DNA of 39,449 bases, taken from the IMG/VR virus record IMGVR_UViG_3300046490_000092, positions 1 through 39,449 of that record, one strand, 5' to 3'. Below are positions 24,216 to 37,359 of this stretch, piece by piece. A program made the translations under genes and the position numbers. This DNA comes from a virus (taxonomy: Duplodnaviria > Caudoviricetes). The notes below the pieces were generated by a model that had not been told where the DNA came from, did no database searches, and saw only the letters and a list, made by a program, of their open reading frames with translations. Within the stretch, counting starts at the first letter, position 1; the number at the start of each line of letters is the position of its first letter.

Positions 24216-24716
24216 CTACGCTTGGATCTCTTCGGACACGAGCCATTCCACGCCGACCCACGTGATGGATACGCCGTTGGCTACCCCGTCGTTGATGTAG
24301 GTGACGTCGCCCCGATTCACCTTGATCTTGGCGTCGTAGGGGCCCTGCCCCGACTCCCACACGGCATCGGGACTCTGACCCATCCGAGGATCCGAGCGAA
24401 TGCGCGTCTTCACGGACTCGATCATGTCGTCTAGGGCATCGGCGATGTCGCTGCCCTGGCCGTCCGACATGAAATGGCAGATCAACAGTTGGATGGTGTA
24501 GTCGACCATCGTCCAGCCAGTCACCGCCGGAAAGGAGACCCGGCTCTCGGTCTCCTTGGCGATGTGAATGCACGCCAGCGTCTGCTCCGGAATCGTGATT
24601 CCCGTGGCCAGCAGTTGCATCTGGTTGTCCCATTCCTTCAAGATCACCGGAAGGGACGAGAGCTGAGGCTTGGTGAGAAACGCCTGCACGATGTTGCGGA
24701 TCGATTTGCTACTCAT
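24216..24716 (-). CDS. putative tail terminator
   Basis: Position before the major tail gene; DALDDMIESVKTRIRSDPRMG helix typical of terminator-like proteins. Confidence 0.65.
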   Translation of the reverse strand: MSSKSIRNIVQAFLTKPQLSSLPVILKEWDNQMQLLATGITIPEQTLACIHIAKETESRVSFPAVTGWTMVDYTIQLLICHFMSDGQGSDIADALDDMIESVKTRIRSDPRMGQSPDAVWESGQGPYDAKIKVNRGDVTYINDGVANGVSITWVGVEWLVSEEIQA

Positions 24717-25630
24717 CGGGGCGGCCTCTGGTACCGGAACAGGAGATCCGTCGCTGTCTTGACGTTGGCGTCCACGTACTCGGTCGACTGCTGCGCACCC
24801 CGGTTGCCGGACCCGCCCTGCGTCAAGCGACCGGCGAGCGTGTTCATCTGGGGGGCGAGCACCGCAACCGCGCCACGCGTTTGGATGAGGGTGGATGCGA
24901 GGAGGATCGTAGCCTGTCGGATATCTTCCGGGATGGCGCTCACGGTGACGCCGGAGCCGTGTGCGAAGACCAGGGCGGACGCCAGCGGCACCGAGCTACC
25001 CCCCGCGTACGCCGCGCTCACCGTGACCTGCTCCGTTTGCGCTCCGTCGTACACCACCATCGACATACCGGGTTGCACACCCAACGGGGCAGAGATGGTC
25101 AAGCTGGTCGCACCCGCTGAAGCCCCGCCAGAGAGGGTGGCATGGGGCCACCCGGCGATGTGGGACCACTGGCAGTAGACCGAGCGTCCCGGCCGCACCG
25201 AGCCGAATTGCAGGGGCCCTGCGGTCGACATGAACCCGGAAGTGAGAGGGACCTCGTAGAAATAGAAGTCCGGCGTGACGTCGGACAAATCGCTCTTCGA
25301 GGCCAGGTTAGAGGCACTGGTCCCGTAAGCGAAACTGACCAATTGCAAACAAGGCGTGTTGCGTGGGTTGACCAGGATCGTGCCATCCGGGCGAGCCGTC
25401 ATCCGCCGAATCTCGGTGTCCTGGTACGCGATCACGGGGATCGGACGTTTCATGATGGTGTCGGCCCATGCCGAAGCGGCCCGGATGCGGTTCAATAACT
25501 CCGCATCCGTAGCCGCTGCGTCTCCCTTAACAAGGGCGGCAGTGTCGACGCCGGTTGGAGCCTGCCGGTAGTCCGCGACTGAGATGTAAGGCTTTGCCGA
25601 CGTCGGCAGCGTCGGATTTACGGCAGGCAC
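24713..25630 (-). CDS. head-to-tail adaptor with an inserted beta domain
   Basis: PYISVADY, RAASAWAD, AGWP, IPEDIRQATI and LLFRY adaptor motifs. Confidence 0.8.
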   Translation of the reverse strand: MPAVNPTLPTSAKPYISVADYRQAPTGVDTAALVKGDAAATDAELLNRIRAASAWADTIMKRPIPVIAYQDTEIRRMTARPDGTILVNPRNTPCLQLVSFAYGTSASNLASKSDLSDVTPDFYFYEVPLTSGFMSTAGPLQFGSVRPGRSVYCQWSHIAGWPHATLSGGASAGATSLTISAPLGVQPGMSMVVYDGAQTEQVTVSAAYAGGSSVPLASALVFAHGSGVTVSAIPEDIRQATILLASTLIQTRGAVAVLAPQMNTLAGRLTQGGSGNRGAQQSTEYVDANVKTATDLLFRYQRPPR

Positions 25631-26480: not shown

Positions 26481-28193
26481 TCACTTGCGGACGATGCCGG
26501 TCAAGCATCCGTTCCAGGCAGCCGCGTAGCAGAGGAACGTCCCGTACCAGTAGGACGATGCCTCGTACGCGAGCTGGAGCACTGGCCACTCCAGGCTCAT
26601 GTAGTCCTGGACGTTGAAGGCCTTCCAGACGTCCGAAACCTCGGAGTTCTGGAGCGGAAGTTGCCAGGAGATGATCGGGCTGATGCCCTGCGGGATCCAG
26701 GGGTGAACGGTGAAGTCCACCATCTTGCCCGTGACCTCGTTCTGCAGCCCAGTGACCACGGCACCGATGGTCGCACTGTGCTCCTGCTCGATGGTGATGC
26801 GGTACGAGCTGGAGTTGCTGTTGAGCTTGATGAGGTCCGACATCTGCTTGCGGTCGCCGCCGTAGAGGAAGATCTCGTCGGGATCGGCCTTGACGCTGTC
26901 GTACAGCGAGACGAACACCTGGTTGTAGTCGTCGCCCGGGTTGGACGAGAACGTACTGCCCAGGTGCCGGACGTAGCCCGCCTGCGACGGGTTGGAGCAG
27001 ATGGTGAGCAGGCCGTCGTAGTCCAGCGCGCTGGAGTCGGTCGCCGAGGCGGGCGGGTTGGAGCCCGCGATCGGCGCGCCGCCAGTGCCACCACCGGTGA
27101 AGTTGATGGTCACCGCACCAGCAGTACCGGACGCCACGACCAGCGTGCCGATGCCGTTGCCGAACTTGGCGGCTTGAATGCCAGAGGCACCGGCTGCGAT
27201 CGTCAGGTCCGCGGTCCAGACGGAAGCCGCCGCGTTGACGGTACCGGCGTAGACCTTGTACTGCTGCGCACCCGTGACCAGGGTGGTGAGCTGGACGTCC
27301 ACGACCTTGCCGGTCGCGGCGCTCATGCCCGTGGTGTTCGCCGAGCCCGCGACCGTCTCGCCGAAGGCGGTGGCCGCCGTGACGTAGACGTACAACGTCG
27401 CGATGTTCGCGGTGTTGCCGGTCTCACCTGTGGTGGCGTTCCGAACGGTGAGGGTCGGCGTACCGGGGGTGGTGAGCGCGCCAGCGAACCCGGCCGCGGT
27501 ACCGCGACCACCGAGCAAGAGGCGCTCCTCCATCAGGAGCGAGGACCACAGCAGTGCGGAACGGTCGGTCGCCCGGATGTCCTGGAACCCCTGACCGGAG
27601 AACTGCGCCGAGAAGGGAACCGAGCTGGACAGACCGAACTGCAGGTAGGGCACACTGGCCTCGTCACCCGCGTACGAGATCTTCGCACCACGGATGAAGT
27701 TGAGCGAGCCGAATGTGGTAGTGGTCGAGTCGGTCAGGCCGGGTCGGATGTTGCCGACACCGCCGGTACCGGTACCGGTGTGACCGGTGATCCTCTTGTA
27801 CCGGTGCGCCGTGCCGACACCCCTGCCACGCGGGATCCGATTGCGGAGCGGCGTGAGACGCGGGGCCAGCAGCTTGGCCGGAGCCTCCAGGTCGTAGGCC
27901 ACGTAGCCAGTCGACAGCGGCGAAGTCAGCGTCAGGTCCTTGACGACGTCGGCCGTCATGCCCATCGCCGCGCCGATCGACTCCAGGACGTCGGCGGACA
28001 CCGACTTGGAGAGGGTCTGGAGAGCGGCGGTCTTCGGGTCGATGTTCTGGGCCGCCAGCCCGCCGCGCATCTCGGCGAACTTCTGGGTGATGTCGGTCGG
28101 AGCATCCATGAGGGTCTGGAACGACTTGTAGCGGTCCGCGCGATCCTCGGCAGTCGAGGCGTCAGCGAACATCTCCTTGGTGTTGATTGCCAT
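26481..28193 (-). CDS. major capsid protein (570 aa) with an internal Ig/FN3-like insertion
   Basis: Follows the protease/scaffold; very high GC3; LEAPAKLL..TPLRNRIPR, VHPWIPQG and YGTFLCYA motifs. Confidence 0.88.
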   Translation of the reverse strand: MAINTKEMFADASTAEDRADRYKSFQTLMDAPTDITQKFAEMRGGLAAQNIDPKTAALQTLSKSVSADVLESIGAAMGMTADVVKDLTLTSPLSTGYVAYDLEAPAKLLAPRLTPLRNRIPRGRGVGTAHRYKRITGHTGTGTGGVGNIRPGLTDSTTTTFGSLNFIRGAKISYAGDEASVPYLQFGLSSSVPFSAQFSGQGFQDIRATDRSALLWSSLLMEERLLLGGRGTAAGFAGALTTPGTPTLTVRNATTGETGNTANIATLYVYVTAATAFGETVAGSANTTGMSAATGKVVDVQLTTLVTGAQQYKVYAGTVNAAASVWTADLTIAAGASGIQAAKFGNGIGTLVVASGTAGAVTINFTGGGTGGAPIAGSNPPASATDSSALDYDGLLTICSNPSQAGYVRHLGSTFSSNPGDDYNQVFVSLYDSVKADPDEIFLYGGDRKQMSDLIKLNSNSSSYRITIEQEHSATIGAVVTGLQNEVTGKMVDFTVHPWIPQGISPIISWQLPLQNSEVSDVWKAFNVQDYMSLEWPVLQLAYEASSYWYGTFLCYAAAWNGCLTGIVRK

Positions 28194-31557: not shown

Positions 31558-33072
31558 TCACCTGATGCTAGACAGTCCGGGAACCGATACCATGCCCACC
31601 ACACCCGCCGCGCTGATACCGAACTTGTCCTCGCGGAGTTCGGTCAAATCGTGGCCGCAGGAGAAACATGCTATCGCTGCCGAAACATTCGGGATACCAC
31701 ACTTCGGACAGGAGACCGAGATGGCGTTCAAATACTCGATGCCGGACCCGCCACCGAGTTCGGTAAGCGCCCATACCAGAGCGTCAAGGCGGTCCGGCGA
31801 CCAACCAGAATCCGGCGTCCAAGTGCAGAGTTGGTCTTCGAGGTCCAGGAAAGTGCCCACATGCGAGACCCGATTCTTACGGTAAAGAACCGAAATCGGC
31901 TCGGCGCGCACCGCCTTGCCTCGTGATGCGCGAACGAGCTTGACTGGAAGCGTGGATCGCTCATGGTTGAGCGTGGCCTCCACCATCTCGCCACCGTAGT
32001 TCACCTCCGCGATGACCATGTCGGCCTGGACTTCGTCGTACAGCCGCACCACGGCCTTAGCCCACTGATCCGGGCGACCCAGCCGCGAGAAGTCGCGCAG
32101 CACATAGAACCGGTTGTCTCGACCCAAGCCCACCGCGACGATGCCGCATTCATCCGCGCCGTCCTGCGAGGATCCAGCGGGGTCCACGCCGATCACGATG
32201 CGGAAAAGCTCCGGATGCTGACCGACGCGATTCTCGTCGATGTTGGTCTGATCCCAGAGAGCGCCCGGGACGGAGTCCATCGCCGACCAGTCGCCGTCCA
32301 GAAGGGCACGACGCAATCGGCCGTCCGGGAGTGCCCGGAGCTGCTGAACGTACGTCGGGTTGTTCTCCAACAGGATCGGATTGTCGTAGACCGTAGCGGG
32401 AATGAACGCTCGCGACGGATGCCACCCGATGATCTCACCCTCGTCGACGATCGGAGGCGCCCACGACTCGTATGGAACAGGCATTTCCTGACCAGGAGCA
32501 AGATCGGTTGGCCGGGGCTGAACCCAGCGCTTCTTGACCCAGCGAAACCCGCGACCCTCAGGGTTAGCCGTTGCGATGACGTGAGCCCGGTATCCGGCCG
32601 CCGATCGAACGCGCGAGAGCATGAACGTGTATTGCTCTTCAAGGAGTTCCGTCACCTCGTCGAACAGTAGCAGATCGAACTCGGCGGACTTGTATTGCTC
32701 TTGGTCGTTCTCGTTCTGCAACGAGATGAATCGGATCACCGATCGGTTGTCAAATTTCCAAGTCGATTCCGTACGGTTGACCTTGGCAAACCCCTCGGTT
32801 AGCTGGTCGAGGTGCAGCCCGTGCGTCTGCTTGAGACGGGGAAGTGTGCGCCGGACCAGCCCGATGTGTGATCGTGGGTGGCGCAATGCGAACTCCACCG
32901 CGTAACAGCGGAGGAACATCGACTTGCCGCCACCCGCAGCCCCACCGTACAGAAGCTCGAAGACGGACCCCGCGAGATCGGCCGCCCGCTGTTGCTTCGG
33001 GTAAGGACTCCAGACTCGAATCCGTGTCGGTGCGAATGCCTTTAGAGCCTGGCCGAACACTGAGTCGGCCAT
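31558..33072 (-). CDS. terL: terminase large subunit with C-terminal Zn ribbon
   Basis: GGAAGGGKS, LLLFDEVT, ATANP, IGVDPA, PDRLDALVW; CPKCG..CFSCG tail; ATG 33072 with SD GAGGAGG. Confidence 0.95.
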   Translation of the reverse strand: MADSVFGQALKAFAPTRIRVWSPYPKQQRAADLAGSVFELLYGGAAGGGKSMFLRCYAVEFALRHPRSHIGLVRRTLPRLKQTHGLHLDQLTEGFAKVNRTESTWKFDNRSVIRFISLQNENDQEQYKSAEFDLLLFDEVTELLEEQYTFMLSRVRSAAGYRAHVIATANPEGRGFRWVKKRWVQPRPTDLAPGQEMPVPYESWAPPIVDEGEIIGWHPSRAFIPATVYDNPILLENNPTYVQQLRALPDGRLRRALLDGDWSAMDSVPGALWDQTNIDENRVGQHPELFRIVIGVDPAGSSQDGADECGIVAVGLGRDNRFYVLRDFSRLGRPDQWAKAVVRLYDEVQADMVIAEVNYGGEMVEATLNHERSTLPVKLVRASRGKAVRAEPISVLYRKNRVSHVGTFLDLEDQLCTWTPDSGWSPDRLDALVWALTELGGGSGIEYLNAISVSCPKCGIPNVSAAIACFSCGHDLTELREDKFGISAAGVVGMVSVPGLSSIR

Positions 33073-33160: not shown

Positions 33161-33481
33161 TCAGAACACCGTTAGGACGTCGATCGGCTCCGTTGGCACC
33201 TCGGGGTTGTCAGCGATCTTGATCCAGACGGCGTACGCACCCTTGGTCAAGATCACCGTGCCGACCGGACCCAGGAGGACGCGAGCAACGTACCGAGATG
33301 GCGGACCCGCCTCGACCTCCCAGGATCCCGACTTGAAATCACTCAGGGTTGGGTCTACTCCAGGCGCCATGAACGCGAACGTTACCGTGGTCGAAGTGGG
33401 GTTGTAGGGCAGTCCATCCTTGGTGGCCCCGACGTAGTACCGAAGATACCGAGTCGTCAAGGCCGCGCGACGCGTTGCCAT
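33161..33481 (-). CDS. small Ig-like virion protein (BppU-N-like adaptor)
   Basis: All-beta 106 aa: PYNPTSTTVTFAF...GAYAVWIKIADNPEVP. Confidence 0.65.
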   Translation of the reverse strand: MATRRAALTTRYLRYYVGATKDGLPYNPTSTTVTFAFMAPGVDPTLSDFKSGSWEVEAGPPSRYVARVLLGPVGTVILTKGAYAVWIKIADNPEVPTEPIDVLTVF

Positions 33482-33484
33482 CCG

Positions 33485-35425
33485 TCATCCTCCAGCGAAC
33501 CCGAAAACCCAGTTGTCGTTGTCATCGTCAAGTTGCCAGTTGTCCGCCGTATATCCGAACAGCCATGAATCCTTGGAGGCTGTGGAGATCGTATACACGA
33601 TGTCGTCGACTACCTGAATGACCGGCACGAATATCCGCCCTCTACCCAGACGCGACTTGATGCCTTCCATGCGCCGGGTCCGCACCCATCGCGGAATGAA
33701 CACCGGAGCGATGGGGTTGTTCCAAGCCGATCGACCGGTAACCCTGCCCCGGCGCAGCGCCATCCCCTCCCGGAACGACGACTCCACACGACCGCGAGGT
33801 ACCAGCGTCGGGTTGATATATCCCGATGAAGGAACCACCACAGCCGAGGACCCTCGCCGAGGGATCCCGCGACGACGTGCCGGGGCGGGGGCACCGACGG
33901 GCGCGGCGGGCGGTGTGGTCTTCACGGTGAAAGACGGGCGGGTCCTCCGTGACGCCATCGGCAGGATCGGTCCCCGGCGCCCAGCGCGAGGCAGCGGGGT
34001 GTCCGGCAGCGTGTTTGCGGTCATTCGGCGTCGAACCGTAGGCATCCGACGTGCGGTGACCCGTTCGGCGACCACGAAGTCCTGCGCATTCGGAGCTGCT
34101 GCGAACGTCGATCTACGACGCAAAACTCCGAGCCGTTGTCTGCGCAACGTCACCGACACTAGGGGAGGCGCAATCCCGACACCTTGCGCAAGCACTCCCG
34201 CGGTGCGTTTGCGGGACAAGCTGGCGGGTAGGACCGCCCTAGAACGGCGAGTGGTGGAAACCAGGGCGGGCGGCAATGGCGCAGTCGCCTGCGGCCACCC
34301 CGGCTCGTACCTCCTGACAATCCGCCGGAAGTTGGTGGCCCTACGCAGGATCGTGGACCACGGCTTGGGGTAATCCGGCTGGAAAGGCGCGAAGGCGCGG
34401 AGCGATTCACCCGGTTTGCGCCGTGCGTACCGCGGAATGCCGACCCGCAACGACTGCGCAACGTACTTGACAGGATACGGTGGTGGCGTCACGGTCTGCG
34501 GCTTCGGAGGCGGGAACTCGTGACCTCGACGCACCGCGGGCCGGGAGATCAGCCGTCGCCCAGACGACAGGTTGCTGCGGAAATCCGGAGGTACGACGAT
34601 CTGAGTGGCGACGAGCTTCTGCGGCGCAGGACGCTTCTTGAACAGGGACACGGAAGCCTTGACGGCTCGCGTAGAAGCAGCCGCGGACGGAGTCACCAGA
34701 ACCTTGGGAGCGGGGGCTGGCGGCACGCGCAAGATTCGCCGCACTGCTGGCACTATGAGCTTTCGACGAGCCGGAGTCCGGGGAAAGTCGAAATCGATGA
34801 ACGTACCATCCGTGAACTGCACGTCGCTGAAGTCCACCTGCTCGCCGGTGGCTCCGCTCGTGATCACGTGCAGTGTGGAGAACCCGGCGGCATTGGCGGG
34901 GGTGGTGCTATCAGCCGCAGTGACCGTTGAGCTGCTAGGTCGGATGCTGGACACAGCCCAGATCCGACAATCCAGGTTGACCGTGCCAGTACCCAGGGCT
35001 GAGAACTCGATCCAGTACTGGGTTCCCGTTGTGAACGTGAACGCAGACGTGGCGAGCGTGGGGTACGTCCCACCACGCCCGGTTATCAGGTTTACACCCG
35101 AATGCGCTGGTATCTGGATGAAGTATCCAGTGAGGTTAGCCGCCGTACCTGAAGCCTCCCGGAGCCAAAACTCCAGGTTACCGTTCGCGCCACCAGTAGT
35201 CTGGAACGTGAACTTCATCTTCATGGCACAGTTGGGACCCACCGCCGCATTGTGCTGCATCGTGGACTGTGTGGAACCCGTACCCGGATTCAAACGACCC
35301 TGACCGCTCTGGATCGTGATCGACTGACCGGTACCGACCTGGGAGTTCTGCCACGTGCCGATGGTAGTGTTCCACGCGGATCCGTTGGATCCGGGGAATC
35401 GACTGGCCAGGAAGATCGAGGTCAC
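33485..35425 (-). CDS. N-terminal lectin-like beta-sandwich + long Arg/Pro-rich periodic region + acidic/Trp C-terminus
   Basis: GTG 35425 with RBS GGAGG; uninterrupted frame in operon orientation, tightly flanked by neighbours. Confidence 0.75.
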   Translation of the reverse strand: MTSIFLASRFPGSNGSAWNTTIGTWQNSQVGTGQSITIQSGQGRLNPGTGSTQSTMQHNAAVGPNCAMKMKFTFQTTGGANGNLEFWLREASGTAANLTGYFIQIPAHSGVNLITGRGGTYPTLATSAFTFTTGTQYWIEFSALGTGTVNLDCRIWAVSSIRPSSSTVTAADSTTPANAAGFSTLHVITSGATGEQVDFSDVQFTDGTFIDFDFPRTPARRKLIVPAVRRILRVPPAPAPKVLVTPSAAASTRAVKASVSLFKKRPAPQKLVATQIVVPPDFRSNLSSGRRLISRPAVRRGHEFPPPKPQTVTPPPYPVKYVAQSLRVGIPRYARRKPGESLRAFAPFQPDYPKPWSTILRRATNFRRIVRRYEPGWPQATAPLPPALVSTTRRSRAVLPASLSRKRTAGVLAQGVGIAPPLVSVTLRRQRLGVLRRRSTFAAAPNAQDFVVAERVTARRMPTVRRRMTANTLPDTPLPRAGRRGPILPMASRRTRPSFTVKTTPPAAPVGAPAPARRRGIPRRGSSAVVVPSSGYINPTLVPRGRVESSFREGMALRRGRVTGRSAWNNPIAPVFIPRWVRTRRMEGIKSRLGRGRIFVPVIQVVDDIVYTISTASKDSWLFGYTADNWQLDDDNDNWVFGFAGG

Positions 35426-35463
35426 GGCCACCCTCCGGCGCAGTGGTGTTTCAGAGCGATGTG

Positions 35464-35536
35464 CCGAGAGCCGGGCTGCCTGGTTCCCCCTCCAGGTGGT
35501 GCGAGTTCGCCTTCTCGCCTTCAGCCCAGCCCTCGG
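35464..35536 (-). ncRNA. intergenic three-way-junction RNA element
   Basis: 15-bp P1 CCGAGGGCUGGGCUG/CAGCCCGGCUCUCGG enclosing GCGAG-AAGGCGAA-CUCGC and CCUGG-AGGGGGAA-CCAGG. Confidence 0.6.
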
Positions 35537-35543
35537 GTCTAGA

Positions 35544-36059
35544 TCACTCCTCCCACTCCAGGTCGAGCGTGAAGAGGTGGGACGGAGGGAGCGCGTTGCC
35601 GATGTTGACGAAGGCCAGAGCGTTGGCGGCACCCTGGTCGCAGATCAGTTCCTCCATGAACTCGTGCGGGATGTCCAGACCCGTCTGGGTGTTGAAGGAG
35701 GGCAGCTTCCGGAGGGCCGTCGCGCCGATGGTCGGACCGGTGGTACCGGCCGCAGCCGCCGTGGTGATGTCCAGGCCGGTGACGGCGGTACCGGCGCCGC
35801 GCGGGTCCATGTTGGCGCCCGTGACGGTGGAGAAGCCGGTACCGACCACGCGGACCGTCTGCCGGTAGATCGCCACGGTCATCTGCTGCGAGGTGGGGAC
35901 CGTGGCACCGGCCCGCACGCCGAGGAAGATGCGCCGGAGCTTGTAGTTGGCGGTGCCGCCCGCGACCAGGGCCGCGAAGTAGCCGTTGAAGGTGACACCC
36001 GACGGGACGCCAGCGGGCTGAGCCGCCTGCGACTCGACGGTGGCGACGAAACGACTCAT
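35544..36059 (-). CDS. abundant virion-type beta-sandwich protein ending LEWEE
   Basis: ATG 36059 with RBS AAGGAG; Ala/Gly/Thr-rich, capsid-like high GC3. Confidence 0.8.
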   Translation of the reverse strand: MSRFVATVESQAAQPAGVPSGVTFNGYFAALVAGGTANYKLRRIFLGVRAGATVPTSQQMTVAIYRQTVRVVGTGFSTVTGANMDPRGAGTAVTGLDITTAAAAGTTGPTIGATALRKLPSFNTQTGLDIPHEFMEELICDQGAANALAFVNIGNALPPSHLFTLDLEWEE

Positions 36060-36076
36060 GGTCGCGTTCTCCTTGA

Positions 36077-36277
36077 TCAGGCGGTCTGGTCGCCGCCGGG
36101 GTTGACTGCGTTGCCGGTGTAGGGGGTCTCGGTGAACAGATAGTCGACGACCATCCGGTTGGTGCTGCCGACGCTCAGGTACTGACCGTATCGGCCGGGG
36201 TTGGATGTGGCGAACTGGGCTGCCGCTGCGTCGACCTGGTCGAGCAGGTCCATCGCCTGTTGGAGGGTGTAGGTCAT
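36077..36277 (-). CDS. hypothetical protein (66 aa)
   Basis: ORF track; RBS GAGGAG; operon orientation. Confidence 0.65.
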   Translation of the reverse strand: MTYTLQQAMDLLDQVDAAAAQFATSNPGRYGQYLSVGSTNRMVVDYLFTETPYTGNAVNPGGDQTA

Positions 36278-36280
36278 CGG

Positions 36281-36559
36281 TTACTCCTCGTTGTCGTCGG
36301 GCTTGGGAACCTCGGGTGCCCGCGACGACTTCGGAACGTGGGGGATCTCGTCGAACAGGTACCCGACGTGCATGGCCGCTGTCAGGAGGTGGTGTCGAGC
36401 CGCCGCGACCCTGCCGGGGCTGTAGGGGTCGTGGGCGCCGTCCGGGCCGCCGTCGGTGAACGGTTCGATCTCGTTGTAGACGCGAGTGAGGAGGCCCAGC
36501 AGCTCTTCCTTGGTGCTGTTCAGGCTGTCGATGATGTCCTGACGCTTCTGACGGCTCAT
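36281..36559 (-). CDS. hypothetical protein (92 aa)
   Basis: ORF track; TGATG overlap with TerS. Confidence 0.65.
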   Translation of the reverse strand: MSRQKRQDIIDSLNSTKEELLGLLTRVYNEIEPFTDGGPDGAHDPYSPGRVAAARHHLLTAAMHVGYLFDEIPHVPKSSRAPEVPKPDDNEE

Positions 36560-37359
36560 CAGTTGATCTCCTCAAGCACGATCACGGGGGTGGGGTCGTC
36601 GTCGGCGGTGAGCTTCTCCAGGACGGCAGCCAGGAGACTACGCAGGAGTTCGACGTCACGGTCGTTGAGGGTCGGGACGCGTCGGCTGAACTCGATGACG
36701 GCCTCGGTGAGACCGGTCGCGAGCTTGTTGCCGCGGATCTCGTCCATGCGGACGCGTCGCTCTTCGATCCCCAGCCGGGCCATGTCGACAAGCGACGACC
36801 GCAGGTGGTGGATGAGGCGTTCCCAGAGGACGACTTCAGCGCGGAGCTGCTCGCCGCCTGCTGCGGTCTGGACCCCAACGGAACTCAGGTCGTTGACGCG
36901 CTTCCCGGCCGCGTGGAAGGCGTTCCGGAGGATGCCGACCATCTTGGCGAACTCAGCGGCGACGTCGTCGACGGGCTTGGCCGTGGGGTCGTGGAGCATT
37001 TGCAGAATGCGCAGATCCGCGGTCTGCTTGGCTTCGAGTTCGGCGTTGCGACCCCCGGCGCGACGGGCCGTGGGATCGTCGTGGTGGGCGCAGTACCGGG
37101 ATCCGCGGCCGGGGTCGAGCTTGCAAGGCCGCTGCAGGTAGTGGCCGGGCTGGTCCGGGTCGGGGATCTTGTCGTCGTTGGCGTCGAGCTGCAGCGCGTG
37201 GCCCTGGCATTTCAGGGCGGGGTGCGTCTGTCCACACCGGACGCAATCCCAGGGCTCCAACGCGCGGATGTGCTGCGGGAGGCTGGGATTCTTGGTGCGC
37301 CGCTTCTGGCCCTCGATCTCGGAGCGCTGGCGGGGTGTGATGATCGGATCGTCTGACAC
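36559..37359 (-). CDS. putative terminase small subunit
   Basis: CVRCGQTH..KCQGH, PC...RYCAHH Zn/HGG-like region and RAEVVLWER...MARLGIEERRV motif of actinophage TerS; first gene of the late operon. Confidence 0.7.
   Translation of the reverse strand: MSDDPIITPRQRSEIEGQKRRTKNPSLPQHIRALEPWDCVRCGQTHPALKCQGHALQLDANDDKIPDPDQPGHYLQRPCKLDPGRGSRYCAHHDDPTARRAGGRNAELEAKQTADLRILQMLHDPTAKPVDDVAAEFAKMVGILRNAFHAAGKRVNDLSSVGVQTAAGGEQLRAEVVLWERLIHHLRSSLVDMARLGIEERRVRMDEIRGNKLATGLTEAVIEFSRRVPTLNDRDVELLRSLLAAVLEKLTADDDPTPVIVLEEIN

Follow-up and report, generated by a model that had tools for sequence, protein, structure and literature searches.

The five genes at positions 33,161 to 36,559 of the viral contig IMGVR_UViG_3300046490_000092 (Duplodnaviria; Caudoviricetes; 39,449 bases, 62.7% GC; the window, below, means this whole contig) probably build a virion fibre of the rope-and-bead type, most likely at the neck, in which each of 12 Arg/Pro repeats of a rope protein docks a jelly-roll protein (called WEE here, after its C-terminal residues) and the Trp-repeat tail of the rope is likely held by an immunoglobulin (Ig)-fold protein. 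The original prediction had placed a length-controlled head or neck filament here, encoded by five genes that split the terminase subunits, and all five lie where it put them, on the minus strand between a TerS-like gene and TerL. The module is real and widespread. The direct observations are the genes and their co-occurrence, the modelled folds of WEE and the Ig protein, the constant spacing of the repeats, and the pairing of tails with anchors and of repeats with beads. The features of the module and its flanks are as follows (aa, amino acids; AF2, AlphaFold2).

33161..33481, minus strand: 106-aa Ig-fold protein, predicted collar or anchor (AF2 model and VIA structure search)
33485..33592, minus strand: C-terminal Trp-repeat tail of the rope protein, predicted anchor peptide (pairing with the Ig family in other loci)
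33593..34753, minus strand: rope protein aa 225-611, 12 degenerate Arg/Pro units (period test and motif parse)
34781..35425, minus strand: rope protein aa 1-215, exchangeable N-terminal beta domain, likely a lectin-like tip (identity to locus L090, LamG-like look-alike)
35544..36059, minus strand: WEE, 171-aa single jelly roll, predicted high-copy bead (AF2 model, fold searches, codon adaptation)
36077..36277, minus strand: g66, small protein (cluster c4; small-family profile, E 5.5e-11)
36281..36559, minus strand: g92, small protein, paralog of g66 (profile of the family sited just upstream of WEE, E 3.4e-10)
36559..37359, minus strand: TerS-like gene, 266 aa, upstream flank (position and a weak link to a phrog_9231 TerS-like protein)
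31558..33072, minus strand: TerL, downstream flank (Pfam Terminase_6N/6C, PF03237/PF17289; phrog_979)

The Arg/Pro rope protein

The rope protein consists of 646 aa, and between aa 214 and 603 it is rich in Arg (17%) and Pro (14%), with Asp and Glu together at 2.8%. The basic residues recur with a period of 32.5 aa (p = 0.004; equalled or exceeded in 3 of 1000 shuffles), in agreement with the original claim of an acid-poor stretch with periodic Arg/Pro clusters. A 22-column repeat motif (core RRGR-x3-PVPxQ-xx-PP), trained on 37 homologs with the window excluded, parses the protein into 12 units spaced 28–37 aa apart, with a score of 84.5 against 1.4 for the best of 200 shuffles. Among homologous ropes (loci are numbered with the prefix L) the period of the basic residues lies between 30 and 35.5 aa in 40 of 40 (p < 0.01 in 37), the repeat spacing falls into two length classes, near 29 and 34, and the number of units per rope ranges from 2 to 19. 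A fixed period with a variable number of units is what one would expect of units that each fit a single rigid partner, and it is in keeping with the ruler-like repeats that had been proposed.

GC-rich genomes often contain shadow frames rich in Arg and Pro, and the stretch might be a wrong-frame or neutral low-complexity artefact of such DNA; a looser composition test does match the reverse strand in 22 of 79 loci. The repeat motif, however, matches none of 80 reverse strands. The rope frame is the sole stop-free one of the six, GC content is highest at the third of the three codon positions, and identical pieces are found in other public runs. The rope dN/dS is 0.24–0.54 in most homolog pairs (comparisons within L070/074/075/077/078, L079/084, L109/114, L125/132, and L138/140). 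To judge from these sequences, a coding stretch under purifying selection in the homologs is supported, as the original prediction implied, and the artefact, already largely refuted, is left with next to no probability.

The N-terminal domain of the window rope is 65% identical to that of L090, whose rope precedes another type of anchor. It resembles a LamG-type cluster in a language-model comparison (look-alike score 0.94), with no match in Pfam or PHROG. Other ropes carry unrelated beta domains at this end, some bear enzyme domains (spherulin-4, GDSL), and 23 of 74 ropes are headless, the first repeat lying at most 11 residues from the frame start (L071 was excluded as an artefact). The domain is likely an exchangeable, lectin-like tip; of the lectin-like head claimed originally, the likeness stands on the LamG score and the tip proves to be optional. 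Enzyme-like inserts (spherulin-4, GDSL esterase), or fusions to tail-like proteins, were also noticed in the ropes of L026 (9421-12948), L034 (8558-12004), and L044 (8773-12123).

The jelly-roll protein WEE

In the AF2 model WEE folds into a single jelly roll (pLDDT 93.9), with a full sandwich and no helix. Searches with Foldseek and VIA return generic jelly rolls only, the best Z score being 7.6: the cement protein of KHP40 (7DOU; root mean square deviation 2.8 over 105 aa) is tied with nucleoplasmin and satellite-virus capsids, and the fold matches in BFVD include uncharacterised phage proteins. The acidic C-terminal tail ascribed to WEE in the original prediction is not confirmed by the model, in which LDLEWEE forms beta-strand 162–170, the last strand of the core. 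The C-termini of the homologs read WEE in 45 of 102 and EIE in 32 of 102. The acidic residues D129, E133, E136, E137, E168, and E170 are kept in at least 90% of homologs, and D85 is also conserved; conserved basic residues (R3, K40, R42, R43, R66) nearly offset them, the median net charge of the family being -2.

The WEE family comprises 942 clusters at 90%. Its profile finds no sequence match among solved structures (best E 0.82) and none in Pfam at E up to 5, Gp80 (PF23140) included. Among 50,697 annotated phage records no match was found for WEE, a distant WEE, two adaptors, or a clean rope (in the case of the rope the low-complexity filter may hide matches), and no cultured phage carrying module genes was found in these records. 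Three short contigs of metagenome-assembled genomes (MAGs) are the only WEE matches among 185,579 genomes. A search for longer or fused forms of WEE returned none, which is weak evidence. At L082 (8524-8991) a second, divergent WEE paralog lies immediately behind WEE (E 4e-8).

The WEE gene has the ribosome-binding site AAGGAG and the highest codon adaptation among the 16 genes tested (0.84; major capsid protein, MCP, 0.78), which upholds the capsid-like codon bias and the strong ribosome-binding site claimed for it. The rope gene, at 0.48, is among the weakest, and this difference is the pattern expected for a high-copy versus a low-copy protein. Codon bias at the capsid level would also suit a capsid decoration protein (a cement-like trimer or a vertex pentamer), with the rope laced over the head between WEE sites and the repeat length matching the spacing of the sites; three-fold sites lie, by estimate, ~80 Å apart. 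The frequent position of the module after the MCP gene fits such a role, as do the trimeric cements of KHP40 (Z 7.6), Pam1, and GP4 among the top VIA matches, although no fold match reaches Z 8. However, the best homolog of WEE shows 73–85% identity to it in phages of each of three further, unrelated MCP families (phrog_10, phrog_1650, and phrog_29592; the family of the window is phrog_13692), and the MCP and tube proteins of the window have no BLAST match in those phages. Since WEE is kept across MCP families and the MCP and tube are not, its partner is unlikely to be the capsid or the tube. Many such genomes, moreover, already have a small gene beside the MCP gene (c7, phrog_673), which we take to encode a DUF2190-type cement. 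A decoration role for WEE is thus unlikely.

Co-occurrence of WEE and the rope

From a first set of 80 loci 79 were used (L085, cut by the contig end, was left out) and from a second set of 53 loci 45 (the other eight are contigs already in the first set); after the removal by hand of 12 near-duplicates, 112 loci remained. In the uniform motif test, 68 of the 80 loci with enough sequence have a rope no more than 4 kb downstream of WEE, and none of 85 has one upstream. In the 155-aa WEE clade, absent from the motif training, a rope is found in 26 of 34. The co-occurrence of WEE, rope, and Ig genes across phages, proposed originally as a check, is thus borne out. A WEE-blind DNA-pattern scan of viral contigs, covering one repeat subtype, yielded 22 stretches, of which 19 were analysed (two repeats of one contig and the known locus L024 were left out; one of those kept is the L026 contig). 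A tandem array is present in five of the analysed contigs. Each of these has WEE upstream and was already known from the WEE scans, so the pattern scan produced no new array. The other 13 new stretches contain neither a tandem array nor WEE.

In many loci, conserved small genes that are absent from the window lie between WEE and the rope (e.g. L076, 8523-9412; L026, 8597-9400). These are c6 (~180 aa, 16 loci), c14 (~105 aa, 12 loci), c27 (~88 aa, 6 loci), and c47, all without a clear PHROG match, and they may encode extra beads or caps. The neighbours c6, c27, and c31 were tried as WEE paralogs, and no relation is detectable. Genes for a glycosyltransferase-like protein (phrog_34859) and other modification-type proteins adjoin the module at L016, L017, L088, and L098, where glycosylation of virion proteins is possible.

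Pairing of tails with anchors and of repeats with beads

A survey of the tails of 74 ropes and of the genes that follow them reveals fixed pairings. Trp-repeat tails are followed by the Ig family of the window in 7 of 7 other loci, as in the window itself, which agrees with the proposed tie between rope and adaptor. VDxY tails are followed by a phrog_1084-like protein (6 of 6) and TxRP tails by unannotated connector-region genes (phrog_13779/19109; 16 of 16), presumably head-closure-like from their position. A further 25 tails precede an Ig domain of the kind fused to the phrog_442 head-tail adaptor, and 11 have no assigned neighbour. Every tail/anchor pairing is present in both WEE clades.

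The repeats vary together with the small protein. A second small protein (phrog_5417-like) is present in 5 of 112 loci (L034, L071, L073, L110, and L142; the profile was built from three of the five and then picked up L110 and L142). Each of the five has a composite rope in which the Arg/Pro units are followed by acidic units of ~19 aa, and at least 11 such acidic repeats are found in 4 of these 5 loci versus 1 of the 107 others. The composite ropes (L073, 8542-12960; L034, 8558-12004; L110; L142; L071), with up to ~43 acidic repeats, likely represent a second rope/bead pair. A link of the second small protein to Gp80 was considered and is not supported. L022 (4471-6297) resembles the window type in its N-terminal domain (46% identical to that of L031), its Trp tail, and its Ig family, but its repeats are acidic and it has no WEE match; it carries another small gene (phrog_26662), possibly a third bead family. 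Genes judged by eye to be glycosyltransferase-like and epimerase-like lie upstream. The 153-aa gene of L022 was also considered as Gp80-like, and a relationship is not supported.

These pairings bear on a further explanation, that the rope is a naked polycationic tether for anionic wall polymers, DNA, or minerals and that WEE serves solely as a chaperone or forms a separate tip outside the final fibre. In favour of this, the rope is strongly basic with few acidic residues, the overall charge of WEE is close to neutral, and WEE is retained with some ropes of only 1–3 Arg/Pro units. A tether, however, would not need a fixed period of 28–37 aa with conserved Gln and Pro positions, the composite ropes have a distinct small protein for each type of repeat, and Arg-rich chains without protection are expected to be protease-labile. 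This explanation is therefore improbable.

The Ig protein and its site in the virion

The 106-aa protein adopts an Ig fold in the AF2 model (pLDDT 91.7), as expected of the small Ig-like adaptor in the original prediction. In VIA its best phage match, at rank 2 of 48,161 chains, is chain I of 9C39 (Z 7.8, root mean square deviation 3.2, 90 aa), which is Sf14 gp30, a homolog of the Bas63 'collar protein'. Sister modules carry an Ig domain as a fused part of their phrog_442 head-tail adaptors. Within the earlier claim of a head or neck filament, the neck is favoured by the genetic evidence and the head is not.

The stand-alone Ig of the window subtype might instead anchor a rope-and-bead fibre elsewhere, at the head vertices, at the portal, or along the tail. 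Of 12 loci with a window-type module, 8 have it in front of TerL, whereas none of 24 and none of 16 loci with the other types do, and the head-tail adaptor of the window has no fused Ig (E 0.98). Head fibres occur in phage 7-7-1 (PMC12796354) and the rope of A1002 runs along the tail (PMC13730344). On the other hand, the anchor gene of the sister modules is fused to, or lies beside, the head-tail adaptor, and one anchor family on unrelated capsids better fits the conserved neck, so that another anchor site appears quite unlikely. The window adaptor (24713-25630, minus strand; 305 aa) lacks an N-terminal Ig domain and has an internal beta-rich insertion at about aa 160–230, a candidate docking site for the stand-alone Ig.

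The g66 family is found at WEE in 20 loci, the window included. Since both g92 and g66 belong to the family found just upstream of WEE, all five genes form one module; g66 and g92 are likely helical assembly helpers.

Genome setting

The window carries a siphovirus-type gene set (TerL, portal, protease, head-tail adaptor, tube (PF18906), and tape measure), together with a phrog_13692 protein at the capsid position and a LamG/CBM tail protein. The TerS-like gene is assigned indirectly, through a weak tblastn match to a 220-aa protein that itself matches phrog_9231 at E 0.003. None of the five module genes belongs to a Pfam or PHROG family, apart from one chance-level Pfam match for g66, and no promoter or terminator signal above chance is found. 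Pieces of the window occur in peat and permafrost metagenome runs, one further run being left uncounted as the possible source; all are identical, and no sequence variants were found in public runs. An actinobacterial host is plausible. The MAGs with WEE relatives bear the labels Acidothermaceae, Streptosporangiaceae, and Sporichthyaceae, but Ca. Acidoferrum and a betaproteobacterium are also among them. The capsid-position protein (26481-28193, minus strand; 570 aa) has a long Thr/Gly/Ala-rich, beta-like insertion in its middle, possibly a protruding domain, and the end of TerL (31558-31720, minus strand) contains a zinc-ribbon-like segment (PF13248, E 6e-4, below the cutoff).

The proposed fibre

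A fixed period with a free copy number, the identity of WEE (73–85%) across four capsid families, and the paired swaps are together what would be expected of a serial-docking rope. The 646-aa protein would be extended, with WEE beads docked along it one after another, each RRGR-PVPxQ unit binding one WEE unit, perhaps via the conserved acidic residues of WEE. The number of repeats would set the number of beads and, as a consequence of the template, the length of the fibre, which for 12 units would be 50–120 nm by a rough geometric estimate. The Trp-repeat tail would bind the Ig anchor, which would sit on the head-tail connector (an extrapolation from the adaptor-fused forms), the optional N-terminal domain would act as a swappable adhesion tip, and g66 and g92 would aid assembly. 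The likely job of such a fibre is reversible attachment to cell or soil surfaces.

Several observations weigh against this proposal. All the support is genomic or comes from single-chain models, and the loci are mutually related, with the result that the counts overstate their independence. The repeats of the window are degenerate and miss the strictest detector, and one rope comparison (L039 vs L040-42) has a dN/dS of 1.04, where the aligned region probably takes in an overlapping upstream stretch. The rope test misses 12 of 80 loci: four of these (L034, L073, L110, L142) have composite ropes with 1–3 Arg/Pro units, two have the rope at another distance or side (L063 upstream, L113 at +4.5 kb), and two more (L122, L143) have short ropes; in L128, L153, and L154 no rope is seen, and L036 was not resolved. 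The best structural match of WEE is the trimeric capsid cement at a non-significant Z of 7.6. In the case of the anchor, the score of Sf14 gp30 ties with antibodies and many unrelated Ig domains, and the profile link between the stand-alone Ig and the adaptor-fused Ig is weak (hhalign 30% and 3%); since, in addition, the window subtype lies before TerL and not by the connector, the neck site is extrapolated. WEE is also not a Gp80-family bead by sequence (no PF23140 match), and its model shows a full jelly roll without the N-terminal helix of the gp80/whisker fold, in which the rope completes an incomplete sandwich. Finally, none of 11 GP4 tail-region proteins, the candidate rope included, contains Arg/Pro repeats (Arg at most 8%, best single motif score 4.1).

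Tentatively, and with less assurance than the fibre itself, uncultured soil phages may have in common a programmable set of fibre parts, with a three-part code in one rope gene: the anchor would be chosen by the tail motif, the bead by the repeat type, and the length by the repeat number. If so, fibre architecture could be read from the sequence and rewritten in it, and the Arg/Pro–WEE pair would be a new filament that self-assembles to a defined length and is independent of the GP4-type bead. Several large phage gene families without a Pfam or PHROG name would gain a testable role, and rope-and-bead neck fibres, solved so far in a small number of phages that infect Gram-negative hosts, would be extended to soil viruses of the siphophage type. 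The natural variation in repeat number makes template length control testable with three recombinant proteins, and the WEE–rope pair could serve as a length-defined nanofibre scaffold.

Comparison with known fibres and cements

The original prediction took such a filament to be undescribed for actinophages. The literature searched, which contains few subscription papers, describes neither an Arg/Pro rope nor whiskers of this kind in Streptomyces phages, and a report on three mycobacteriophage baseplates (PMC13252515) does not mention a rope, collar, or whisker. The design itself is, however, known in Gram-negative phages (PMC12609058, PMC11821841, PMC13730344).

The trimeric cements (KHP40 7DOU, Pam1 7EEL, GP4 8H89) are single jelly rolls like WEE (Z 6.5–7.6, non-significant); unlike a cement, WEE goes with the rope gene and not with any one capsid family. 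Phage 7-7-1 has capsid fibres of unknown composition (PMC12796354). The neck fibre gp82-gp81-gp80 of the Anabaena myophage A-1(L) likewise has three parts, namely an anchor, ~14 beads, and a carbohydrate-binding tip (PMC10966104), but its beads are stacked trimers, and its accessible description does not mention an internal rope.

In Escherichia phage Bas63, Ig-like collars sit on the adaptor, and whisker dimers are strung on their rope arms 'such as beads on a string' (PMC12609058); in Shigella phage Sf14, gp30 threads the whiskers (PMC11821841); the structures of the collar/whisker complexes are 9MT4 and 9C39. The Ig-like collar at the head-tail adaptor, the extended rope, and the threaded beads resemble the module described here, and the window Ig aligns with Sf14 gp30. 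In Bas63 and Sf14, however, the rope is the N-terminal arm of the collar and carries two dimers of a bead built from a helix and an incomplete sandwich, whereas the window encodes a separate rope of 12 Arg/Pro units with a terminal domain and, in the model, a complete, helix-free bead.

A separate rope gene, an Ig-like collar, and serial beads are shared with Fiber-1 of the Ralstonia podophage GP4, where a separately encoded rope interlocks with the collar and bears five bead dimers (PMC12609058, PMC13730344). Its parts are gp80 (PF23140) and the adaptor gp77 (PF23148; 8JOU). The WEE profiles reach only E 0.51 and 0.34 against GP4 gp80, whereas gp80 itself matches PF23140 at 6.5e-41; gp80 (8JOU) is not among the fold matches listed for WEE, a listing that cannot exclude a family. 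In the Pseudomonas podophage A1002 a single rope of ~300 Å offers 11 serial sites for dimers of two bead proteins (PMC13730344). Two bead proteins on separate parts of a rope are also what is suggested by the composite ropes of L034, L071, L073, L110, and L142; A1002 differs in its rope, which is fused to the nozzle, in its gp80-like beads, and in being a podovirus of a Gram-negative host.

Two features common to the GP4, Sf14/Bas63, and A1002 fibres recur in the window: the Ig-like collar or adaptor, as an Ig fold whose association with the connector is suggested by the phrog_442-fused sister forms, and the extended rope with evenly spaced sites, present at the sequence level as 12 units. By analogy, the module is best read as a variation on the known working principle of these fibres, with a different bead and a different repeat.

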